NCBI GenBank assembly: GCA_012839815.1
Contig: DUMQ01000146.1
Coordinates: forward strand, 6,141-70,140
DNA: 64,000 nt
Direction of reading: 5' to 3'
Source: Bacillota bacterium
GTDB lineage: Bacteria; Bacillota; SHA-98; Ch115; JABLXJ01
In this document: positions 6,182 through 13,442 of the stretch, piece after piece
Layout of the letters: the number at the start of each line of letters is the position of its first letter
Numbering within the stretch: position 1 is the stretch's first letter
Notes under the pieces: model-generated
Told to the model about the DNA's origin: nothing
Seen by the model: only the letters and a program-made list of their open reading frames with translations
Databases searched by the model: none
Position numbers and translations under genes: made by a program

Positions 6182-6548
6182 CCTTTATATTCCGTGGTAT
6201 TCCGTGCATGTCCGCTCCATGCTTGATATGGACATGCATGATATGAGCAGCGTAGATGAGCACCGTAGGGATGAATATGAATATGCAAGATATGAATACG
6301 CAAGATATATATGATGCTCACTACATACATTCCGCTAGTAGTGTATCCCGGTAGAGGCAAGCTAAACGGGGAGTGCGTGTAATTTCTGTGTGACTACTCT
6401 GTGTGACCACTCCTGGCCCTCAACCTTCAATCGGTGGGCGTGCCGGGGTGGCAAATAACTTATCACCTTTTTTGGAGCAGGTAGGCCAGAAACTTAGCGG
6501 TTCACAGGCGCCCCGGTGACGACGGAAAACGGGCACCTCTCAGGGGTA

Positions 6549-6577
6549 TAGACATTAAAAGAAAAATGGTGTATAAT
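6549..6577 (+). promoter_or_regulatory. SigA-type promoter of the tRNA gene
   Basis: TAGACA-17 nt-TATAAT about 80 nt upstream of tRNA-Arg. Confidence 0.65.
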
Positions 6578-6655
6578 ACATATGAACGTATGGCAGTAAA
6601 TACCCGAGCCGCATAGAGCGGCATCGACGTCAGTTGAAAGCCCCAATCATCGTGT

Positions 6656-6731
6656 GCGCCTATAGCTCAGTGGATCAGAGCGCCGGCCTCCGGAGCCGGG
6701 TGCGCAGGTTCGAGTCCTGCTAGGCGCACCA
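6656..6731 (+). tRNA. tRNA-Arg(CCG)
   Basis: Acceptor stem GCGCCTA/TAGGCGC, anticodon arm CCGGC-CTCCGGA-GCCGG, T-loop GGTTCGAGTCC, encoded CCA; 76 nt. Confidence 0.97.
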
Positions 6732-6735
6732 TTTT
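6677..6735 (+). repeat. attL core (3' part of the tRNA)
   Basis: Identical to 13084..13142 (AGAGCGCCGG...GCGCACCATTTT). Confidence 0.95.
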
Positions 6736-6816
6736 TATGTATGCGCTGCTAGCGGCCATATTGGAGCATAGAGACAATATGCCCTAAAGCTCGCAGGCCG
6801 TGGTACCTTAAATGGG

Positions 6817-6845
6817 CCTCCCACTGGAAAAGATGGGAGGTTTTT
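6817..6845 (+). terminator. Intrinsic terminator after the tRNA, overlapping the integrase RBS
   Basis: CCTCCCA/TGGGAGG stem followed by TTTTT. Confidence 0.65.
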
Positions 6846-6848
6846 GCT

Positions 6849-7787
6849 TTGGTAAGGGTTCTACGTATAGACAAGAAACTGCCTTCAACATGGCAGGAAG
6901 CCCTATCCGAATTCATCCTCTTTAAGCAGGCTCAGGGTGCATCGCCCAGGACAGTTGAAGACTATGAGTATCACATCAGGCTCCTTTTCACTCGTTATCC
7001 TGATGCCTGGAACCCATTGAATTTCAAACGAGCAGTACTAGAGCACATGGCCCAACCTGTGGCACCTGCCACCTTTAACATCCGTCGGAAGTACCTGAAA
7101 GTTTTCTTCAACTGGTGCATGGAGGAAGGCATATTCCCCGAAAACCCGTTGTCTGGCGTCTCAAAGAGAAGGGACGAAGGCCGGATCAGGAGTGTCAAGC
7201 AGGAGGTGTTAGAGCGGCTTTTGTCCCTTCCTAACCCAAAGACCTTCACTGGCCTACGTGACTATGCCTTGATCCTGCTAAGCCTTGACGTCGGGATTCG
7301 CCCGAAAGAGGCATTGTCTCTACGTGTGTGGGATGTTGACCTGGAGGATCTGACGATTACCATCAGGCGTGAGATATCCAAGACCAGGAAGACCAGTATC
7401 CTGCCTATAACTCGACAAGTTGCTGATGCTTTGAAAAGGCTCATTCATGCAAGACATCCTCAGTGGAATAAGGACGCACCGCTCTTCTGCACTAGAGATG
7501 GAACACCGTTGACGGTAAGAAGATGGGAAGCCAGGCTCAGGAAATACTCTGATATTCTGGGAGTCAACATCACCCCTTACGATCTGCGCCATAGCTTTGC
7601 CACCTTGTTCCTCAAAGACGGAGGGCACCCATTTGCCCTCCAGAAGATTTTGCGCCACTCTAGTATGGATATGGTTAAACGATACGTACAACTTACTGAG
7701 GGGGACTTAAGGGAGCAACATGAGCTTGCTTCGCCCGTCAGGAAACTCCTTCCTAAGAAGCCAAGGGTGGGTAGGATTCAGACCTGA
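6849..7787 (+). CDS. int: Tyrosine recombinase/integrase
   Basis: RDYALILL.LD.GIR..E, SKTRK, YDLRHSFAT, LQKILRH, RYV (R-K-x-R-H-Y set, first His replaced by Tyr). Confidence 0.95.
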   Translation: MVRVLRIDKKLPSTWQEALSEFILFKQAQGASPRTVEDYEYHIRLLFTRYPDAWNPLNFKRAVLEHMAQPVAPATFNIRRKYLKVFFNWCMEEGIFPENPLSGVSKRRDEGRIRSVKQEVLERLLSLPNPKTFTGLRDYALILLSLDVGIRPKEALSLRVWDVDLEDLTITIRREISKTRKTSILPITRQVADALKRLIHARHPQWNKDAPLFCTRDGTPLTVRRWEARLRKYSDILGVNITPYDLRHSFATLFLKDGGHPFALQKILRHSSMDMVKRYVQLTEGDLREQHELASPVRKLLPKKPRVGRIQT

Positions 7788-7959
7788 GAATATGCAGACC
7801 GGTGTGGCTATTAAATATAGTGCAGAAATCCAAAGACCAGGAGGAAATTAGCAAGATTTCGCGAAATAAGGGAGGAGGTGAATATTGGAAAGATTTACCG
7901 AGTCCCTATGTAATCTGTGACAGTGGCCAATCCAAAATCAAGGATGAGGAGGAAGTAAA

Positions 7960-8493
7960 ATGCGGAGTTTCATCAGCAGGATGCTTGTAGTATTGGTGAT
8001 GGTGGTAGTGGTATCAGTAACAACTGCGGCGGAAGCGGCGAGATATACCGAGCAGTTTCGGGGGATGAATTCTATCACTATAGCCGGACTTGCGACGGTT
8101 CCAGAAGGTCTGGGTATTACAAAAGAAGAATGTAAAGCTTACATCAGAGACCTTGTCTATGACGAACTTAGAAGAAAGCTGCCATCTGGGATACTACTGA
8201 ACAAAGACGAGACTTTGGCGGGTTTATCGGATGGATTTCTCTTCGTGGAGGTAATGCTAGTACACGGGCCGGGGAATTTTTTGGGCGACGTTACTCTCGA
8301 CGTCAGCCGTATCGTCACGCTATCGCCCCAAGAGCCTGGGGGGGAACCATTCGTGGCTTATGTATATTATGACACCTTCCCCCTTATTGGGAAGGCTTCA
8401 CAGTCAACCAAAGAGCTTCTGAATGAGCCAATCAGAATGCTGGTTGCGCGATTTGTCTCTGCTTTGCTTGAGGCGCGACCCGATCTAAGATAG
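7960..8493 (+). CDS. Hypothetical secreted protein (element cargo)
   Basis: Signal-peptide-like N-terminus ending in AEA; GAGGAGG RBS. Confidence 0.7.
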   Translation: MRSFISRMLVVLVMVVVVSVTTAAEAARYTEQFRGMNSITIAGLATVPEGLGITKEECKAYIRDLVYDELRRKLPSGILLNKDETLAGLSDGFLFVEVMLVHGPGNFLGDVTLDVSRIVTLSPQEPGGEPFVAYVYYDTFPLIGKASQSTKELLNEPIRMLVARFVSALLEARPDLR

Positions 8494-8674
8494 GCTCCTA
8501 GTGACGCAAGAGTGCCCAGCAAGGAGAAGGGCTGCGGAATCCTAAAGAACTAAGGGTCACGATTTACATAATGCCTATTATGCGACCCACTGCGTGGGGT
8601 GCCCTAGGAGGCATGGCAGCGGCGTCTTGCCGGCTCCCTAGGGCCTTCTGTAGGCTTGTAGACCTTCGCTCAGC

Positions 8675-8947
8675 TCATGATCCCTCCGAAGTTTCTTTGT
8701 TGGGCGGCTTTGGCGTCCGTTCCTTGTCTTTGAAGGCTAGCCACAGCAGAGCTGTAGCTCCTAATACTGCGAGGCCATAAATGATGGCAGTCCTGACATC
8801 TATGACGTCGGCATACTCCACTGAGTAGTCAATTCCTCCCTTAAGGATTACTCCATTGGGCCCATACTTGACTCTCGGTGCACCTACCAGTAAGAGGAAA
8901 AACACTATGGCTCCGGCGATTAGAATACGCCTTTGAACTTTGTTCAC
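8675..8947 (-). CDS. Hypothetical two-TM membrane protein (element cargo)
   Basis: Two hydrophobic segments; AGGAGG RBS before the GTG start. Confidence 0.7.
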   Translation of the reverse strand: MNKVQRRILIAGAIVFFLLLVGAPRVKYGPNGVILKGGIDYSVEYADVIDVRTAIIYGLAVLGATALLWLAFKDKERTPKPPNKETSEGS

Positions 8948-9277
8948 GTGAAGCTCCTCCTATCTTCATTCGGTTGGCTGTAAATGTAGTATATTTGCAC
9001 TTTTCTACATTTGCATGGATTATCCTTCCTGAGTTGGCCACACCCCCCAAGGGCCATGGCGGTTGCTTTACTTGGCTGTGCCTAAATCCGTATGTCAAAA
9101 AGCTTCTTACCATTATTTTCCATGTAGGCGTTCCTGAGAACGATGCCCCGATCTGTCTAGAATATCCCCGCCGACCGTTCGAGCACTCCTTAGGGGCTTT
9201 CCGTTTCACAGCCGACAGCTCTGCCACAAGCTCAGTGACCTCCTCACGACAGCGAGGGCACTTGAATTTTTCGCCGG

Positions 9278-9550
9278 TTAGTCATGACTCTTGCCTCCTT
9301 CCAACTTGTCGAGGAGTTCCTGAGTGGAGTAGTGTTTGCGCTCACGCTGGGTTTCAGCGATGGCGGCAGCTATCTTTTGCCTGGTCTGTTCAAGTTCAGC
9401 GCGAAAGAGAGCATCGCGCTTTAATTCCGTCACGTATTTTGGGCTATAGCCACACATGCGCGCTATGGCGTGTTGCTTGTAGTCATCGCCAGCGGCAATC
9501 AAGAAGCGAATTAGCATGTAGTGGTGGGGGTTGAGCTTTCTCAACGGCAT
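9278..9550 (-). CDS. Small HTH protein, possibly terminase-small-subunit-like
   Basis: IARMCGYSPKYVTELKRDALFRAEL HTH-like segment followed by a helical tail; GGAGGTGG RBS before the ATG at 9550. Confidence 0.55.
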   Translation of the reverse strand: MPLRKLNPHHYMLIRFLIAAGDDYKQHAIARMCGYSPKYVTELKRDALFRAELEQTRQKIAAAIAETQRERKHYSTQELLDKLEGGKSHD

Positions 9551-9693
9551 GGAAGCCACCTCCAAAAATGCATAAGTTCTGAAACTATCATGGGAAAATT
9601 CCCTTATTTTCCAGTCCCTGACTAGCGGGTCAAGGGGGTCTTATCTCTTGCATACTTCTCCCAGCATCAGATTTACACCCCCCTGCATATGTC

Positions 9694-9845
9694 GCTAACA
9701 CTGCTAATACTTCGGGGGAACCCTTGAGCCACAAGGCTTTAAGAGGTCAAAAAGTGTTAGCGCCCCCCGCTAATGGTGCTAACACTTCAGGTCCATTAGC
9801 ACCATTAGCGGTATTAGCGTTAATAGCACCATTAGCACCGTTAGT
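9694..9845. repeat. Iteron-like TTAGC array (candidate replication origin)
   Basis: TTAGC-type motifs every 9 bp at 9796, 9805, 9814, (9823), 9832, (9841); inverted GCTAA at 9694, 9703, 9769, 9778; 10-bp inverted repeat 9752-9761/9778-9787. Confidence 0.65.
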
Positions 9846-11813
9846 GCTGTTACCTACCCTGTCTAGGGTGGTGGTGGGGGTCACGGTATATTTCCCATAG
9901 CCCACCCGAATAACTTGACCCTCTTGCACGAGCTTATTCAAGAGAAAGCGTATGTTGGTTTCCTTCCTACCCAATTGGTCTGCAATCGCCTTGGGGGTCA
10001 AAACTTCACCTGCTTCCCTAAGTGTCTTAAGAATTTCCCGTCGTTCCTTACTCATGCGGTATTCTTCTGCGTCTCCTAGAATAGTCCAGCCGCCCGTTTG
10101 TAGGTCAAAGGTCAAAGCGATTTCTTTCTCCTCAATGTCTCTCCCAGTTATCAGGAGTTCCGCATCGGCCTGTCCTCGGCTTCGTTTTAACACCCACACA
10201 GCGTCAGCCGCCCCTGACAGTCCCGTCGATCCACTAGGGCTGTCGGTGAAGTCTTCGGCGTCCCGCTTGCTTGTATGATGTAAAATCAGCATGGATACCT
10301 TATGGCTGTCGGCAAGGTTCTTTAGTAGAGCTATGGCCTCATAATCTACGTCATAGAGATTGCGGTTCGGTTTTTCCCTTGGCCGAATTCGCTTCAAGAC
10401 ATCTATGACAATCAGCTTGACATTGGGATGTTCAGAAAGCCACTTTTCAAGGGTCTCCCTTCCTCCGTCGTCAAGCCTTAGCCATTCGGTTACAAGATGC
10501 AGCCCCTCTGGCACAGGGGTTCCCCTGAGCAGGATTTTTAACCTGTCTTGTAATCGGCGCTCAGAATCTTCCAAGGCTAGATACAGCACCTCCCTTGGCT
10601 CAACGCGGATTTTTCCGAATGCATAGCCGCCACAAGCCACTGCGATTGCTATTTCTAGCGCCATCCAAGATTTCCCTGATTTCGGCTTTCCGGCCAGGAG
10701 GGACACACCTTCGGTTAAAATGTCTGGTATAATCCATACCGGTTCGGGTAACTCTTTTTTCAGCAGGTCCGGTGCTGTGATTACTTTTGGCGTCCATTGG
10801 AATGCTCTAGTTGAGCCTGTTTTTGCAGCAGGATATCTGCACACGGATTTCACAATGGTGGTCAACTCGTCATCGGCCAGCGGAGGTTCGCACCGCTCCT
10901 GATTTACGGCCCTTAGCGCTGCAAGGATAGCTCCTTCGTCAGCCCCTCGTTTACGTAAGGACCCCGCAATGCTTGTTAATGTGGTGTTCCTCTGGCCTTC
11001 GGGAATGGGTTCAGCCAAAACGTCTTTAGCTACTTTGGGACGGGTTTCTAACTTATCTATCACCCACTGTGGCAGTGGTGCAAGCTCAACCTCGCCCAGA
11101 CCATGGCCTTCCTCAAAACGATAGGGCTCACCATCGGGGTGTATGGATGGTGGGGCCACAACATAGCCACCATCAGCCTTTATATCTACGCCTGGCAGAA
11201 CGGCTTTGCTGGGCACCTTTTGAGCGCCCACAGGATACGCGAAATAAAAGTGCCTACCCCTGGCAGTTCCAACGGTTGGAGTCCTAGGCACCTCGAACCC
11301 ATGTTCGGCAAGAGACTCGAACCCTTTTTCCCCATCTATGTCCAGCACTACAAGGCCTGAGACCCTGCCCGTAACAATGCCAATATTGGCCTCGGGCCAT
11401 TCCTCCCACTGTGCCTTAACCTGGTCTGGGCTGACTGGGTGGTCTTGAGCATCTTTCCAAGGAGTTAGAGGTTCCTTGGTGCGGGGCTTGAGGGGAATCA
11501 CGGAAAAGCCTCGCTGTGCATACCCTATGGCGGCTTGTCCAAGGCTGCGCCCCATATGAATTGGGAGCCCCGCGGCCTTTAAGATATCCTCTAGCGAACA
11601 TCCGTTCGCACATTTCACGTCGGTGATGGTAAATTCGTCGGCAACCCAGCCCCCTGTGATGGCCAATGCGCCTGTTGACCAGGTGGTCTTGTCTCTTTGA
11701 CAATTTGGACAATCCGCCGTCCAGCCTTTATTTGCGCGCTGGACGTTTTTGAGCTTGTTAATAAACTGTTGCAGTGGATTGCAGAGGGCAAGCATGTTTG
11801 AATTGGCGGCCAT
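9747..11813 (-). CDS. Bifunctional primase-polymerase / AAA_25 helicase replication protein
   Basis: N-terminal CxxC Zn finger, Prim-Pol (NIGIVTG, LVVLDID, GRHFYF, GGYVVAPPS.H), PriCT-1 (EGQRN..L..AG.L), Walker A GKPKSGKS, IHHT.K-like motif, C-terminal wHTH. Confidence 0.92.
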   Translation of the reverse strand: MAANSNMLALCNPLQQFINKLKNVQRANKGWTADCPNCQRDKTTWSTGALAITGGWVADEFTITDVKCANGCSLEDILKAAGLPIHMGRSLGQAAIGYAQRGFSVIPLKPRTKEPLTPWKDAQDHPVSPDQVKAQWEEWPEANIGIVTGRVSGLVVLDIDGEKGFESLAEHGFEVPRTPTVGTARGRHFYFAYPVGAQKVPSKAVLPGVDIKADGGYVVAPPSIHPDGEPYRFEEGHGLGEVELAPLPQWVIDKLETRPKVAKDVLAEPIPEGQRNTTLTSIAGSLRKRGADEGAILAALRAVNQERCEPPLADDELTTIVKSVCRYPAAKTGSTRAFQWTPKVITAPDLLKKELPEPVWIIPDILTEGVSLLAGKPKSGKSWMALEIAIAVACGGYAFGKIRVEPREVLYLALEDSERRLQDRLKILLRGTPVPEGLHLVTEWLRLDDGGRETLEKWLSEHPNVKLIVIDVLKRIRPREKPNRNLYDVDYEAIALLKNLADSHKVSMLILHHTSKRDAEDFTDSPSGSTGLSGAADAVWVLKRSRGQADAELLITGRDIEEKEIALTFDLQTGGWTILGDAEEYRMSKERREILKTLREAGEVLTPKAIADQLGRKETNIRFLLNKLVQEGQVIRVGYGKYTVTPTTTLDRVGNSTNGANGAINANTANGANGPEVLAPLAGGANTF

Positions 11814-11825
11814 CGGTCTCCCCCC

Positions 11826-12011
11826 TTAGTTACCCTGAGAAGCCCTGAGAAACTCCTCGACTGCCTCTATGGGAATTACAATCCGTCGGCCTATTCTGAC
11901 GGCTTTGAGCTTACCTGCACGAATAGCCTCATAAATCTTCGTTCGCCCAAGTCCGAGTACTTGCACCAGTTCCTCGGGGCTGTAAGCAAGTGGCTTCAGC
12001 TCTCGTTTCAT
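11826..12011 (-). CDS. Excisionase/AlpA-like HTH_17 DNA-binding protein
   Basis: YSPEEL.QVLGLGRTKIYEAIRAGKLKAVRIGRRIVIP; AAGGAGG RBS. Confidence 0.88.
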   Translation of the reverse strand: MKRELKPLAYSPEELVQVLGLGRTKIYEAIRAGKLKAVRIGRRIVIPIEAVEEFLRASQGN

Positions 12012-12033
12012 TGTTTATCCCTCCTTTTACCAC

Positions 12034-12062
12034 TTGACTGTCTTCGTTCCTTATGGTATCAT
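12034..12062 (+). promoter_or_regulatory. SigA-type promoter in the divergent control region of the element
   Basis: TTGACT-17 nt-TATCAT with an extended TG. Confidence 0.6.
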
Positions 12063-12116
12063 ACAGCCGTCCTCGGAGTTAGCCCGATGCGAGGAGTTTT
12101 GCGAGGAGTGGTAGGG

Positions 12117-13013
12117 ATGGTGTTTAAGGGGCAACGTGGCGAAGCAGTTGCTATGGAAGGTAAAATCAGTCTTCGTTATCCGCTTGAAGATTATCTCCTA
12201 CCTTTAGTGCCGAAACCGGAGGAAGAGGCTGGGCGTCCGGCTTACGTAAGGTTTGCGGCCCTTGCTGAAGCGCCCGATGAAGATATCGTCAAGTTTGCCA
12301 GCCGGTTCGGGTTGTTGGGTTTGAGGACCAGAATGGTGTACAAACTGAGAGAAGGAGACGACGGAGAGGCTGACCTGCTGGAGTTTGAAGGACACCCCGA
12401 CCTGGCCGAGGAATTAAGGGAATCAAGAGCCCGGAGCAGGACTACCGCGTGGAAGCGAGCCCTCGAACAGTCGACACCCCCCTTGGTAACAGAGGGTGAA
12501 CCAATCCTATGGTGGCGACGAGAGGCCAAACGGTTAGACCGATTGATACGCATCAGCGGTATGTTGAGAGAGGCCGAGGAAGGTGGCCTAGAAAGCGATG
12601 ATGTAGTTCAGTTGCGTAAAATGGTTTGTGAGGTTAAGGGCTGGGGTAGCCAGGATTTGATTCCAGACCTTAAGTTTCCTGAAGTAGTTGATTTCAGTCG
12701 CGATGCAATGAGCCGCCGAGTCAATAAAGTGCTAACGGGCCCATCGCGCCTCGAATACGTAGCCAAAGAGGGGTGGCGATTCTCCTATAAACCGACCACC
12801 CTGCTAGAGGCGTTATACGTTCAGTTCATCCAGGGATTGGTCGTTGGGCTTGAAGCCCGCTTTTGTAAGAATCCAAACTGCCCTCATGGCGGGTGGTTTG
12901 TGCCGAATGATCGCCGTCAGCTTTACTGTTGCAAGCAGTGCCGATGGGCCAACAACAAACGGCGACAGCCTAAGCCTAAGGCATTTCCAGTTCGAGAAGA
13001 GGGGGCCGTGTAA
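12117..13013 (+). CDS. Protein with C-terminal CGNR-type zinc finger (putative element regulator)
   Basis: RFCKNPNC...WFVP..RRQLYCCKQCRWANNKRR; GAGGAG RBS before the ATG at 12117. Confidence 0.7.
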   Translation: MVFKGQRGEAVAMEGKISLRYPLEDYLLPLVPKPEEEAGRPAYVRFAALAEAPDEDIVKFASRFGLLGLRTRMVYKLREGDDGEADLLEFEGHPDLAEELRESRARSRTTAWKRALEQSTPPLVTEGEPILWWRREAKRLDRLIRISGMLREAEEGGLESDDVVQLRKMVCEVKGWGSQDLIPDLKFPEVVDFSRDAMSRRVNKVLTGPSRLEYVAKEGWRFSYKPTTLLEALYVQFIQGLVVGLEARFCKNPNCPHGGWFVPNDRRQLYCCKQCRWANNKRRQPKPKAFPVREEGAV

Positions 13014-13083
13014 CCCTAACACCATAAAATCAGTGGGAGGCTCACAGAAGGCCAGCTACGGGCCATTTAAGGATGTGACTCTT

Positions 13084-13142
13084 AGAGCGCCGGCCTCCGG
13101 AGCCGGGTGCGCAGGTTCGAGTCCTGCTAGGCGCACCATTTT
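13084..13142 (+). repeat. attR core (duplicated 3' part of tRNA-Arg)
   Basis: Identical to 6677..6735. Confidence 0.95.
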
Positions 13143-13333
13143 ATTTTTGTGACCCAAGTTAGCGCGCGTGCGTCCTTGTCGCTTTTAGGCTTACCTCGGG
13201 TGGCGCGCCGTAGAGAGATCCCAGCGCGCTTTACTGATATCGGGCCGTGCAGAAATCAGACCAACCGATCTCATATCCGCATTCATATCATATATAGAAG
13301 GGCGAAGCAGAAGGGCGAAGCGGGGAATGAGAC

Positions 13334-13442
13334 ATGGATGACCTGACTGCGATGAAGAAGGTGCTCGCGGGTGATGAAGATCATGAAGGCGTGGCTCTAT
13401 GGGATTGCGTCTAACCTGTGCGTGGATGCGCTCAGAAAGCGA
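13334..13442 (+). pseudogene. Collapsed relic of an ECF sigma factor gene
   Basis: MDDLTAMKKVLAGDED (ECF N-terminus-like) joined out of frame to KAWLYGIASNLCVDALRKR (sigma region 2-like). Confidence 0.6.

Follow-up and report, generated by a model that had tools for sequence, protein, structure and literature searches.

A candidate terminator/antiterminator pair divided by the attachment site ahead of a Xer-like integrase gene

Outside lambda, little is understood, to our knowledge, of how integrated elements keep integrase (Int) low and yet have it ready once they excise or enter a new cell. The lambda sib element lies downstream of int and destabilises the int mRNA through RNase III, lowering Int from the non-integrated genome. 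Lambda-type attP arms carry several copies of one consensus without insertions, which are bound by the N-terminal domain of Int. In trp, pyr and T-box attenuators, the alternative structures adjoin each other, and the choice between them falls to a ribosome, protein, tRNA or ligand.

State-dependent control of int has been described for ICEKp1, and also for ICEclc and ICEEc1 (Liu et al., Nucleic Acids Res 2026, PMC13023037). According to the parts of that paper drawn on here, a 15-bp sequence at the 3' end of ICEKp1 relieves a terminator in the int 5' UTR, as indicated by functional evidence, and base pairing of this sequence with the stem-loop was suggested in silico only. In ICEclc, the far-end outward promoter Pcirc is joined upstream of int only in the circle, raising Int for reintegration (Sentchilo et al. 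2003, via the review PMC5812530). As described in the passages of the review drawn on here, Pcirc acts by promoter relocation only, with no mention of terminator/antiterminator pairing or RBS sequestration.

A near-identical mechanism has already been proposed for ICEKp1 (PMC13023037); what we describe is another integrase family, with the first comparative support from sequences. As far as ICEKp1 is characterised in those parts of the paper, both systems have an int gene adjoining and co-oriented with a tRNA gene, whose promoter would read toward int when the element is integrated, and both have terminator stem-loop(s) in the int 5' UTR, termination being a sequence-based prediction in our case. 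Once ICEKp1 has excised, int is transcribed across attP from a promoter at the opposite end; the present counterpart is a consensus match together with a co-oriented last gene. Whereas the far-end 15 bp of ICEKp1 counters the terminator functionally, the complement found here is 21 nt or longer and its action is predicted from folding. The ICEKp1 group consists of large conjugative elements of Proteobacteria with other integrases. By contrast, the present 6.4-kb primase-helicase element, from a biogas-fermenter metagenome genome, encodes a 312-aa Xer-like Int, and the stem-loop ahead of the gene is one canonical intrinsic terminator with the Shine-Dalgarno (SD) sequence as its 3' arm. Translation would consequently be gated too, unlike in ICEKp1. 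The evidence for the present system comes from comparing 20 elements and a phage and not from experiment.

The element and the hairpin ahead of int

The window, meaning the whole 64-kb stretch of DNA analysed, harbours a mobile element of 6.4 kb (6677-13142) sitting in a tRNA-Arg gene. This tRNA-Arg(CCG) gene (6656-6731, + strand; Rfam tRNA, 71.1 bits) is the integration target and is regenerated by the element. The attL core (6677-6735), a 59-bp direct repeat with 100% identity to the attR core (13084-13142), starts immediately 5' of the anticodon stem and ends 4 nt beyond the tRNA 3' end. The attR core corresponds to the 3' portion of the tRNA that the insertion has displaced, and the original T-rich tail comes after it. 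Adjoining the target gene at one element end and on the same strand is int (6849-7787, +), a tyrosine recombinase gene that begins with TTG and has no in-frame start codon further upstream. The catalytic domain (PF00589, Phage_integrase) spans residues 116-283 (E 4.1e-28; 98.7 bits versus a cut-off of 27.1), and residues 13-293 match positions 164-446 of the 611-position profile phrog_1. An N-terminal arm-binding domain is absent from this 312-aa protein: Pfam gives PF00589 only, and there is no room N-terminally.

The replication module is a 688-aa primase-helicase with profile matches to Prim-Pol, PriCT_1 and AAA_25 (9747-11813, − strand). Next to it lies the gene for a 61-aa excisionase/AlpA-like HTH_17 protein (11826-12011, −; HTH_17 E 1e-13, phrog_66), a candidate directionality factor and candidate binder of arm DNA. 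The last gene (12087-13013, +), whose product has a Cys-rich C-terminus, had no Pfam or PHROG-type profile match and no homologue in the 19 other elements compared. We read the whole as an integrative primase-helicase element with a small Xer-like integrase, one that presumably continues to excise.

Between the tRNA gene and int lies an intrinsic-terminator-like hairpin followed by a T-run and spacer (6816-6848, +, with T-run and spacer at 6841-6848; about -18 kcal/mol by RNAfold). Positions 6816-6825 pair with 6831-6841 through 10 base pairs (7 G-C) with one bulge, closing a 5-nt loop (6826-6830). The hairpin of the earlier note was thus recovered, with a stem slightly larger than the 7 bp it had assigned. 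TTTTT begins at the last stem base, and the features of an intrinsic terminator (a G+C-rich stem, a short loop and a U run within a few nucleotides) are all found; a simple terminator scan overlooked the hairpin because of the bulge. The int SD, GGAGG at 6836-6840, resides in the 3' arm and is followed directly by TTTTT, with an 8-nt spacer to the start codon. The claim that the int RBS is itself the 3' arm of the post-tRNA terminator hairpin was confirmed in both coordinates and letters. These features suggest that transcription would terminate at 6816-6841. Rfam 15 covariance models run over 6400-13400 matched only the tRNA and its attR fragment; neither the hairpin nor the right arm gave a hit at E<=1.

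The far-end complement and its counterparts in relatives

The left 21-mer (6806-6826, +) begins 10 nt ahead of the hairpin, runs through its 5' arm (anti-SD) and ends on the first base of the loop. Its exact complement is found in two halves within a right-arm segment (13031-13072, +), a candidate antiterminator on the basis of complementarity and predicted folding: 13031-13041 (11 nt) complements 6816-6826, and 13063-13072 (10 nt) complements 6806-6815. The two halves are in nested order, adjacent on the left and separated by 21 nt on the right, and those 21 nt can pair further with 6797-6809. The nested, exact complementarity pointed out earlier was hence reproduced, as was the separation of about 200 nt on the circle, which measured 203 nt across the junction. 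The duplex energy between the left 21-mer and the 120 nt before attR was -33.6 kcal/mol, a value reached by 0 of 2000 shuffled right arms (mean -15.1, minimum -25.6). When all 2470 60-nt windows of the element were compared on both strands, the right arm was the best partner of the hairpin 5' region (z -5.4). The flank outside the anti-SD was also complementary, at 10/10 nt.

Using a fixed script, we found the same hairpin (SD in the 3' arm, T-run, start codon) at 34 of 41 homologous int loci versus 19 of 819 random positions. Two of the seven misses (L064 and L068) do have the hairpin and T-run, and it is a canonical start next to the hairpin that is missing. Both ends were mapped for 20 elements, comprising 17 distinct ones and 3 near-duplicates. 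Their arm sequences are unrelated among elements sharing the architecture of hairpin and complement. The + strand right arm was the best partner of the 5'-arm region in 11/20 when all element windows on both strands were considered, and it ranked in the top 1.7% of windows in 8 more; L077 possessed no right-arm complementarity to the hairpin 5' arm. A cognate right arm was better than every foreign arm in 17 of the 20 elements, L024 and L082 being among those whose cognate arm was not the best. With the 5' arm alone the cognate was best in 10/20 and with the 15-nt upstream flank alone in 8/20, compared with 1/20 for a 3'-arm control. In 19/20 elements the distance of the complementary segment from attR is about 2-120 nt. 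The segment follows the hairpin 5' arm at whatever position the hairpin takes, from ~10 to ~200 nt from the core.

In the close pair L056/L058, one compensatory change (T:A to C:G) and one change giving G·U were observed. The Moorella phage MTATph1, deposited in attP form and with an int 44% identical, carries a segment 13-33 nt before its tRNA-like core that complements the 5' arm and loop of an SD hairpin (17/19 plus a bulge). This segment is the best hairpin partner in the 3.9-kb locus on both strands. Cumulatively, these sequence comparisons support the recurrence, across homologous elements, of a terminator/RBS hairpin and a cognate complement before attR. In homologous elements, where the earlier note had proposed to look for covariation, the architecture recurs, cognate arms are preferred and one compensatory pair is seen.

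The repeats may, however, act as DNA. As inverted accessory sites (arm-type or operator) in the P and P' arms, they would be bound by the HTH_17 excisionase-like protein, which the element encodes, by Int or by a host bending protein. Such sites would shape the attP intasome or repress int, and their overlap with the hairpin 5' arm would amount to autoregulation. The mismatches among 17 elements bear on this point. Transitions were near-symmetric (11 of G·U type on the + strand versus 8 on the − strand, plus 28 transversions), and the duplex energies of the two strands differed by a mean of 0.03 kcal/mol. With no strand asymmetry, protein-binding inverted repeats stay a live rival, since the data suit a DNA repeat no less than an RNA helix; the symmetry of a DNA repeat likewise survives the compensatory change in L056/L058. 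Clear arm motifs of 3-5 copies, often with an inverted pair 55-110 nt before the core, are present in relatives L025, L053, L058, L059 and L060, and the Moorella phage has one motif in four copies around the core. The multi-copy motifs of several relatives look like protein sites and are separate from the complement. The degenerate motif GGCYCAnnnAAGG is present as two direct copies on the right arm, 21 bp (about two helical turns) apart, and one inverted copy on the left, and the CCATTTAAGG half in our element could belong to this class of protein-site motifs. The only 9-mer family with 3 copies in the arms of this element is formed by the right-arm segment and the two hairpin arms.

The layout recalls lambda-type attP in that repeated sequences occur in both arms around a tRNA-derived core. 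In contrast to that type, one copy is always the terminator 5' arm, and Int has no N-terminal arm domain, its phrog_1 match beginning at profile position 164. Further points weigh against DNA sites. The complementary segment tracks the hairpin 5' arm and is always in a stretch transcribed toward int, and the match covers the 5' arm and its flank, not the 3' arm. Bulges and insertions (21 nt in our element, 1-3 nt in others) set the copies apart, a difference that an RNA helix should tolerate and two copies of one protein site usually should not. Over the whole window the degenerate motif occurs 10 times against an expectation of 10.6, showing no enrichment. We consider inverted DNA sites around attP, an alternative that the earlier note had itself raised, unlikely: the strand-symmetric complementarity agrees with it, while an Int lacking an arm-binding domain does not.

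Predicted folding before and after excision

Partition-function calculations gave the hairpin of our element a probability of 0.98 in attL RNA and 0.00 in attP RNA, the outcome expected in the earlier note from folding both forms. The probability stayed at 0.98 when the right arm of the attP RNA was shuffled, and likewise with foreign right arms, and the minimum-free-energy fold of the attP RNA includes the long-range helix. That this pairing would outcompete the terminator, as the earlier note claimed, is predicted by folding for this element and not for all relatives. The hairpin loses more than half of its equilibrium probability in attP in only 9/20 elements, and is unchanged at equilibrium in 6/20 (L053, L056, L059, L060, L064 and L068). 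The unpaired probability of the SD rose from 0.00 in attL to 0.23 in attP in our element and from a mean of 0.03 to 0.20 among the 20, with a rise of more than 0.2 in 6/20. Of the proposed freeing of the RBS on the circle, then, a partial release is predicted at equilibrium and a full one is not. When the modelled RNA was truncated immediately ahead of the 3' arm, pairing between the 5' arm and the cognate right arm reached P>=0.5 in 18/20 elements (mean 0.72); with foreign right arms, 5'-arm pairing in the same RNA averaged 0.44. These models lead us to infer that 13031-13072 would pair with 6806-6826 in RNA.

The elements without an equilibrium switch, 6 of 20, would suit the absence of any coupling. 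The hairpin would then do no more than replace the terminator of the tRNA gene or insulate that gene, and slow the translation of int. The right-arm match would be a by-product, for instance of a purine-rich SD-like stretch or as a relic of past tandem insertions. SD-like purine runs are present in right-arm segments, even foreign arms show 5'-arm pairing at the mean probability just given, and elsewhere in the genome, in unrelated contexts, there are 9 further copies of the 11-mer CAGTGGGAGGC. This explanation is opposed by the superiority of cognate over foreign arms in 17/20, by right arms that are the global best of thousands of windows in 11/20, by the shuffled arms that never reach the observed energy, and by a match that reaches the flank beyond the anti-SD, here in full and with flank-alone cognates best in 8/20. 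We regard it as very improbable.

Transcription toward int and a proposed switch

A promoter-like site of the host tRNA-Arg gene (6549-6577, +; TAGACA, 17 nt, TATAAT; 11/12 in a consensus scan only) is the likely source of read-through toward int in the integrated state. Facing attR, the promoter placed at 12034 by the earlier note was present as a consensus match (12034-12062, +; TTGACT, 17 nt, TATCAT, TG-extended; 10/12, consensus scan only). The predicted transcript of the last gene would hold the right-arm segment in its 3' UTR; a weak terminator-like site within that gene (12845-12859) counts against the read-through model. Among the 20 elements, strong sigma-70-like promoters (>=10/12) within 300 nt of the right end were found on the + strand in 8 and on the − strand in none. 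The remaining elements, ours included, have a long + strand ORF stopping 70-165 nt before the core. By consensus and ORF data, the complementary segment is always downstream of that ORF stop or promoter at the right end; in L057/L062 a strong promoter is situated downstream of the segment, and a transcript from that promoter would lack it. These observations support transcription of the right end toward attR in all 20 elements, and suggest that on the circle it would cross attP.

Transcription of the right end raises the question of whether its RNA acts in trans. A right-end transcript made in the integrated state, from the last gene or an outward promoter and ending at the displaced tRNA tail after attR, would pair with the tRNA-int leader and open the hairpin, so that the Int level would follow right-end promoter activity, not the circular state. 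The same complementarity and specificity data are consistent with this scheme, as are the outward promoters or co-oriented ORFs at the right end. It would account for the Int supply needed for excision, and would suit L057/L062, in which the nearest promoter is downstream of the segment. However, termination is decided within seconds during transcription, and a trans RNA should be a poor antiterminator unless abundant, judging from known attenuators. The conserved position of the segment, about 2-120 nt from attR in 19/20, is required for action in cis on the circle and not for action in trans. Action in trans appears distinctly improbable.

We lean, at slightly better than even confidence and on sequence and folding models, toward an int control region that is a terminator/antiterminator pair divided by the attachment site. 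In the integrated state (attL), RNA from the tRNA-Arg promoter would fold into the hairpin at 6816-6841 with its U-run, so that transcription would stop 1-8 nt short of the int start codon and the SD would be buried; Int would arise by leakage only, sufficient for rare excision. The hairpin and its complement probably meet on one RNA only after excision as a circle. Right-end transcripts, from about 12034 and through the last gene, would then cross attP. As 13031-13072 is made first, it would pair with 6806-6826 and further upstream upon their emergence, before the 3' arm exists. With the terminator blocked, RNA polymerase would enter int, the RBS would be at least partly opened, and Int would go up when the element needs reintegration. 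The earlier idea of an integrase off when integrated and on when circular is supported in so far as the predicted attL hairpin is lost in attP; its off state cannot be absolute, because excision itself needs Int and repression in attL must leak.

Such a switch would resemble lambda sib in being a cis RNA element located across attP from int, whose presence on the int transcript is decided by integration and excision. Unlike sib, it lies upstream of int, would act on termination and the RBS, and would raise Int on the circle. With trp, pyr and T-box leaders it shares exclusive helices that compete for the terminator 5' arm, the upstream competitor being transcribed first and pairing more extensively; by contrast, the choice would be made by DNA topology, which places the competitor in cis or 6 kb away. 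As with Pcirc of ICEclc, in the review's description (PMC5812530), circularisation would place an outward far-end promoter upstream of int.

The present family offers a much cleaner case than ICEKp1: its terminator is single and canonical, the RBS lies in the terminator 3' arm, the complement measures at least 21 nt and natural variants are many. These features would make the idea directly testable by compensatory mutation. If true, it would be the first such switch backed by comparative covariation, and would carry what is so far one experimental hint, from ICEKp1, over to integrases and hosts unrelated to it. We give an even chance to the family-wide reading, in which small Xer-like integrases of primase-helicase islands and at least one Moorella phage, from many genera of one phylum, sense topology by a modular RNA switch split by attP. 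An RBS-hiding terminator would lie on one side and its cognate antiterminator on the other, with Int made efficiently only from the circle and the two halves co-evolving in each element. Confirmation would imply the following: 1) the read-out of DNA topology via RNA folding is a recurrent solution in mobile elements; 2) a sequence signature is available for locating element ends and the orientation of attP; and 3) a compact part exists for synthetic circuits that report excision.

Element anatomy and the int-leader hairpin

An integrative element of 6.4 kb occupies the tRNA-Arg(CCG) gene at 6656-6731 of the window and is bordered by a 59-bp perfect direct repeat (6677-6735 and 13084-13142). 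Its + strand encodes a 312-aa tyrosine recombinase with a TTG start (Int, 6849-7787), a small ORF without family (7960-8493) and the last gene of the element (about 12087-13013). On the − strand lie two small ORFs, also without family (8675-8947 and 9278-9565), a Prim-Pol/PriCT_1/AAA_25 primase-helicase (9747-11813) and a 61-aa HTH_17 excisionase-like protein (11826-12011). Neither Pfam nor PHROG gave a match for the last gene, and it has no homologue among the 19 other elements compared here; its product carries a Cys-rich C-terminal stretch (C..C..H, then CC..C) that is zinc-finger-like in appearance. The primase-helicase gene has at its 3' end (9793-9852) a 24-nt unit that occurs in four overlapping copies with 9-nt periodicity and codes for an Asn/Gly/Ala-rich tail.

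The genome assembly comprises 2.8 Mb in 163 contigs with 55% G+C. The stretch is contained in none of the listed RNA runs and in four DNA runs only, all from one biogas-fermenter metagenome study. Because their contigs break at the tRNA repeats, no circle junction or empty site is seen in them, and they have no bearing on excision or expression either way. In these runs the tRNA parts (6634-6867 and 12952-13185) reached a summed contig depth 10-40 times that of the element, and many contigs diverged directly past the tRNA 3' end, leaving loose ends at 6732-6740 and 13140. The tRNA sequence is therefore common to other organisms in the sample.

The earlier note had placed the ribosome-binding site of int in the 3' arm of a 7-bp terminator hairpin. 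On re-reading the window, all of its coordinates and sequence letters were correct and the hairpin is present, but its size had been understated, as 6816-6825 and 6831-6841 form 10 pairs with one bulged A. The loop is GGAAA, TTTTT follows the hairpin, and GGAGG (6836-6840) is separated from the TTG start by an 8-nt spacer. The left 21-mer (6806-6826), which overlaps the 5' arm, is indeed the exact reverse complement, in nested order, of 13031-13041 plus 13063-13072 in the stretch before attR (the right arm), and 6797-6809 is a predicted additional pairing partner for the 21 nt between these two blocks. The duplex energy of -33.6 was matched by 0 of 2000 right-arm shuffles (mean -15.1, minimum -25.6), and of 2470 windows covering both strands of the element, the right arm ranked first as a partner. 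The complementarity between the left 21-mer and the right arm is not due to chance.

Folding of whole-arm duplexes gave long composite structures that were uninterpretable, and targeted tests were used in its place. The tRNA was the sole family matched in an Rfam search. A degenerate motif, GGCYCAnnnAAGG, matched the window 10 times against 10.6 expected, a count that is not significant. The 2.8-Mb genome contains CAGTGGGAGGC 11 times, twice inside the element; base composition would presumably give about 2 genome-wide. The 9 copies outside the element have apparently unrelated contexts, some being ordinary ribosome-binding sites.

Hairpins and predicted cognate pairing in homologous elements

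Many genomes of the window's phylum carry members of the Int family (38-76% identity), and 43 loci were examined. Hairpins were counted over 41 of them, after an N-masked locus (L087) and a duplicate (L088, of L022) had been dropped, by a fixed script whose pattern was a stem of 6 or more pairs carrying an SD-like run on its 3' side, followed by a T-run and then a start codon. The pattern was present at 34 of the 41 int-homologue loci, compared with 19 of 819 positions drawn at random from these loci. Having the SD inside the terminator is therefore a hallmark of the Int family.

Tests of the right arm covered the 20 of 43 loci, the window's element among them, whose two ends are marked by an att repeat of 24 nt or more (17 distinct elements and 3 near-duplicates); the remaining 23 were left out for a contig end, no repeat found, or N-masking (L087). 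The target genes of these 20 elements are tRNA-Arg, Trp, Leu, SeC, Glu, Thr and Gly, and their arm sequences are mutually unrelated. In 11 elements the hairpin 5'-arm region had its best partner, element-wide and on either strand, in the + strand stretch immediately before attR; in 8 further ones this stretch ranked within the top 1.7%, and L077 failed. Cognate right arms outscored all foreign right arms in 17/20, the exceptions being L024, L077 and L082. The cognate arm was best for the 5' arm alone in 10/20, for the 15 nt upstream of it in 8/20 and for the 3' arm in 1/20. By these comparisons, the predicted pairing specificity resides in the 5' arm and the 15 nt upstream, not in the 3' arm.

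Between the closely related elements L056 and L058, one base pair has changed in compensatory fashion, and one other change gives G·U. Genome contigs searched with Int yielded one relative of 46% identity, and metagenome contigs one of 40% and two of 24-25%; none is close enough for fine covariation. In two elements (L057 535-594 and L062 536-595) the att repeat contains a promoter-like TATAAT and the tRNA-Leu 5' half, not the 3' half. Both would restore the 5' part of their target tRNA-Leu, and in both a strong promoter adjoining attR is downstream of the complementary segment.

The closest relative (L021, 6330-6545 on contig C5 of genome G001) has an Int 76% identical to that of the window, with one TAG stop in int, and occupies the chromosomal site that corresponds to 6560-6870 of the window, with the same LDH gene as neighbour. 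The tRNA-Arg there is truncated past the anticodon arm and followed directly by a right-arm-like sequence (GGCCAGCTA..GGGCCATTT) fused to a left-arm-like sequence; neither a right end nor the tRNA 3' half was found within 11 kb. The SD hairpin is retained with improved pairing. This locus looks like a decayed, immobilised copy and was unusable as covariation material. The window's own genome has two further integrases of the family, on contigs C73 (4804-5730, 54% identical) and C39 (998-1588, 53%). The former, which possesses an SD hairpin, adjoins tRNA-Trp; no right end could be located for it, and it was left out of the counts.

Folding, transcription direction and the nature of the repeats

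Pairing on the excised circle was proposed to displace the terminator stem and free the ribosome-binding site, so that integrase is off when integrated and on when circular. From the int leader of the integrated element (attL) to that of the circle (attP), the predicted hairpin probability fell from 0.98 to 0.00 in the window and from a mean of 0.81 to 0.44 among the 20 elements, dropping by more than half in 9/20 and remaining unchanged in 6/20. It stayed at 0.98 in the window with shuffled or foreign right arms (means over the 20 elements 0.78 and 0.80, respectively). When the RNA was cut before the 3' arm, the 5' arm was predicted to pair with its cognate right arm at a probability of 1.00 in the window and 0.72 on average (at least 0.5 in 18/20), compared with 0.69 and 0.44 for foreign right arms. 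The predicted probability of an unpaired SD rose from 0.00 to 0.23 in the window (mean 0.03 to 0.20), and full release of the ribosome-binding site is not predicted by the folding model. Of the two halves of the proposal, antitermination therefore has the better support.

In 8/20 elements attR is faced by a near-consensus sigma-70 promoter (10 of 12 or better) no more than 300 nt away, and such a promoter points the opposite way in 0/20. In the other elements, the window's included, a long + strand ORF stops 70-165 nt before the core, and the complementary segment is positioned between the ORF stop or promoter and the core. Consensus scanning of the window located promoter-like sites at 12034-12062 (TG-extended) and, for the tRNA, at 6549-6577.

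We consider a terminator/antiterminator pair split by attP to be the best explanation, and a somewhat probable one; the earlier interpretation is partly supported, and the observation behind it is confirmed. A version of the RNA model acting in trans would account for the supply of Int for excision, and we regard it as conceivable but unlikely. The main rival, that the complementary segments are protein-binding repeats in DNA, appears unlikely. An RNA helix and an inverted DNA repeat are not told apart by comparison because their predictions are identical unless G·U marks one strand: duplex energies on the + and − strands differed by a mean of 0.03 kcal/mol, and 11 G·U-type transition mismatches on + stood against 8 on −, neither of which separates RNA from DNA. 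Separate multi-copy arm motifs resembling protein sites in several relatives fit the DNA reading, and the CCATTTAAGG half of the window might be of this class. Against it, Int is without an arm-binding domain; the terminator 5' arm is invariably one of the copies, at any distance from the core; bulges and a 21-nt insertion set the copies apart; and the complementary segment is always within the stretch transcribed toward int, as oriented by predicted promoters and ORFs.

The separate motifs, of 9-13 nt in 3-5 copies per element (for example CACACGATT or CACTGGACT), were seen in L025, L053, L058, L059 and L060, both in the left arms and, on the right, 45-110 nt ahead of the attR core. The usual arrangement is an inverted pair in the right arm, its members some 25-45 nt apart, plus one or two left-arm copies. 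Such motifs may represent either protein sites or RNA hairpins.

Related systems and a phage with the same hairpin

Lambda sib retroregulation is the classical attP-split cis RNA element. Unlike the system proposed for the window, it acts downstream of int and with opposite sign. A promoter relocated on the circle is known for ICEclc as Pcirc (reviewed in PMC5812530). For ICEKp1, a recent study (Liu et al., Nucleic Acids Res, March 2026, PMC13023037) showed the following: 1) in the integrated state the tRNA promoter drives int, which is attenuated by 5' UTR stem-loops; 2) after excision a 3'-end promoter takes over, and the terminator is relieved by a 15-bp sequence at the 3' end; and 3) base pairing is suggested by in silico folding, for which the authors call for validation. 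The idea of the earlier note is thus the mechanism proposed there. Compared with ICEKp1, the system proposed for the window belongs to an unrelated, much smaller integrase family, its canonical terminator also contains the ribosome-binding site, its complementarity is longer, and it is backed by comparison of many natural variants. Our literature search found no description of the int-leader/right-arm architecture for the Int family, ICEKp1 being the nearest published case (PMC13023037).

Moorella phage MTATph1 (OR602862.1; L092, 1296-1515), whose int is 44% identical, was deposited in the attP context. It has a partial tRNA-Phe that carries a tRNA gene annotation, and a TCCTCTG..TAAA motif occurs in four copies around the core. 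The same hairpin is present, and its complement, located 13-33 nt upstream of the tRNA-like core, is the best partner within the 3.9-kb locus. MTATph1 could be an experimental model with a cultured host.
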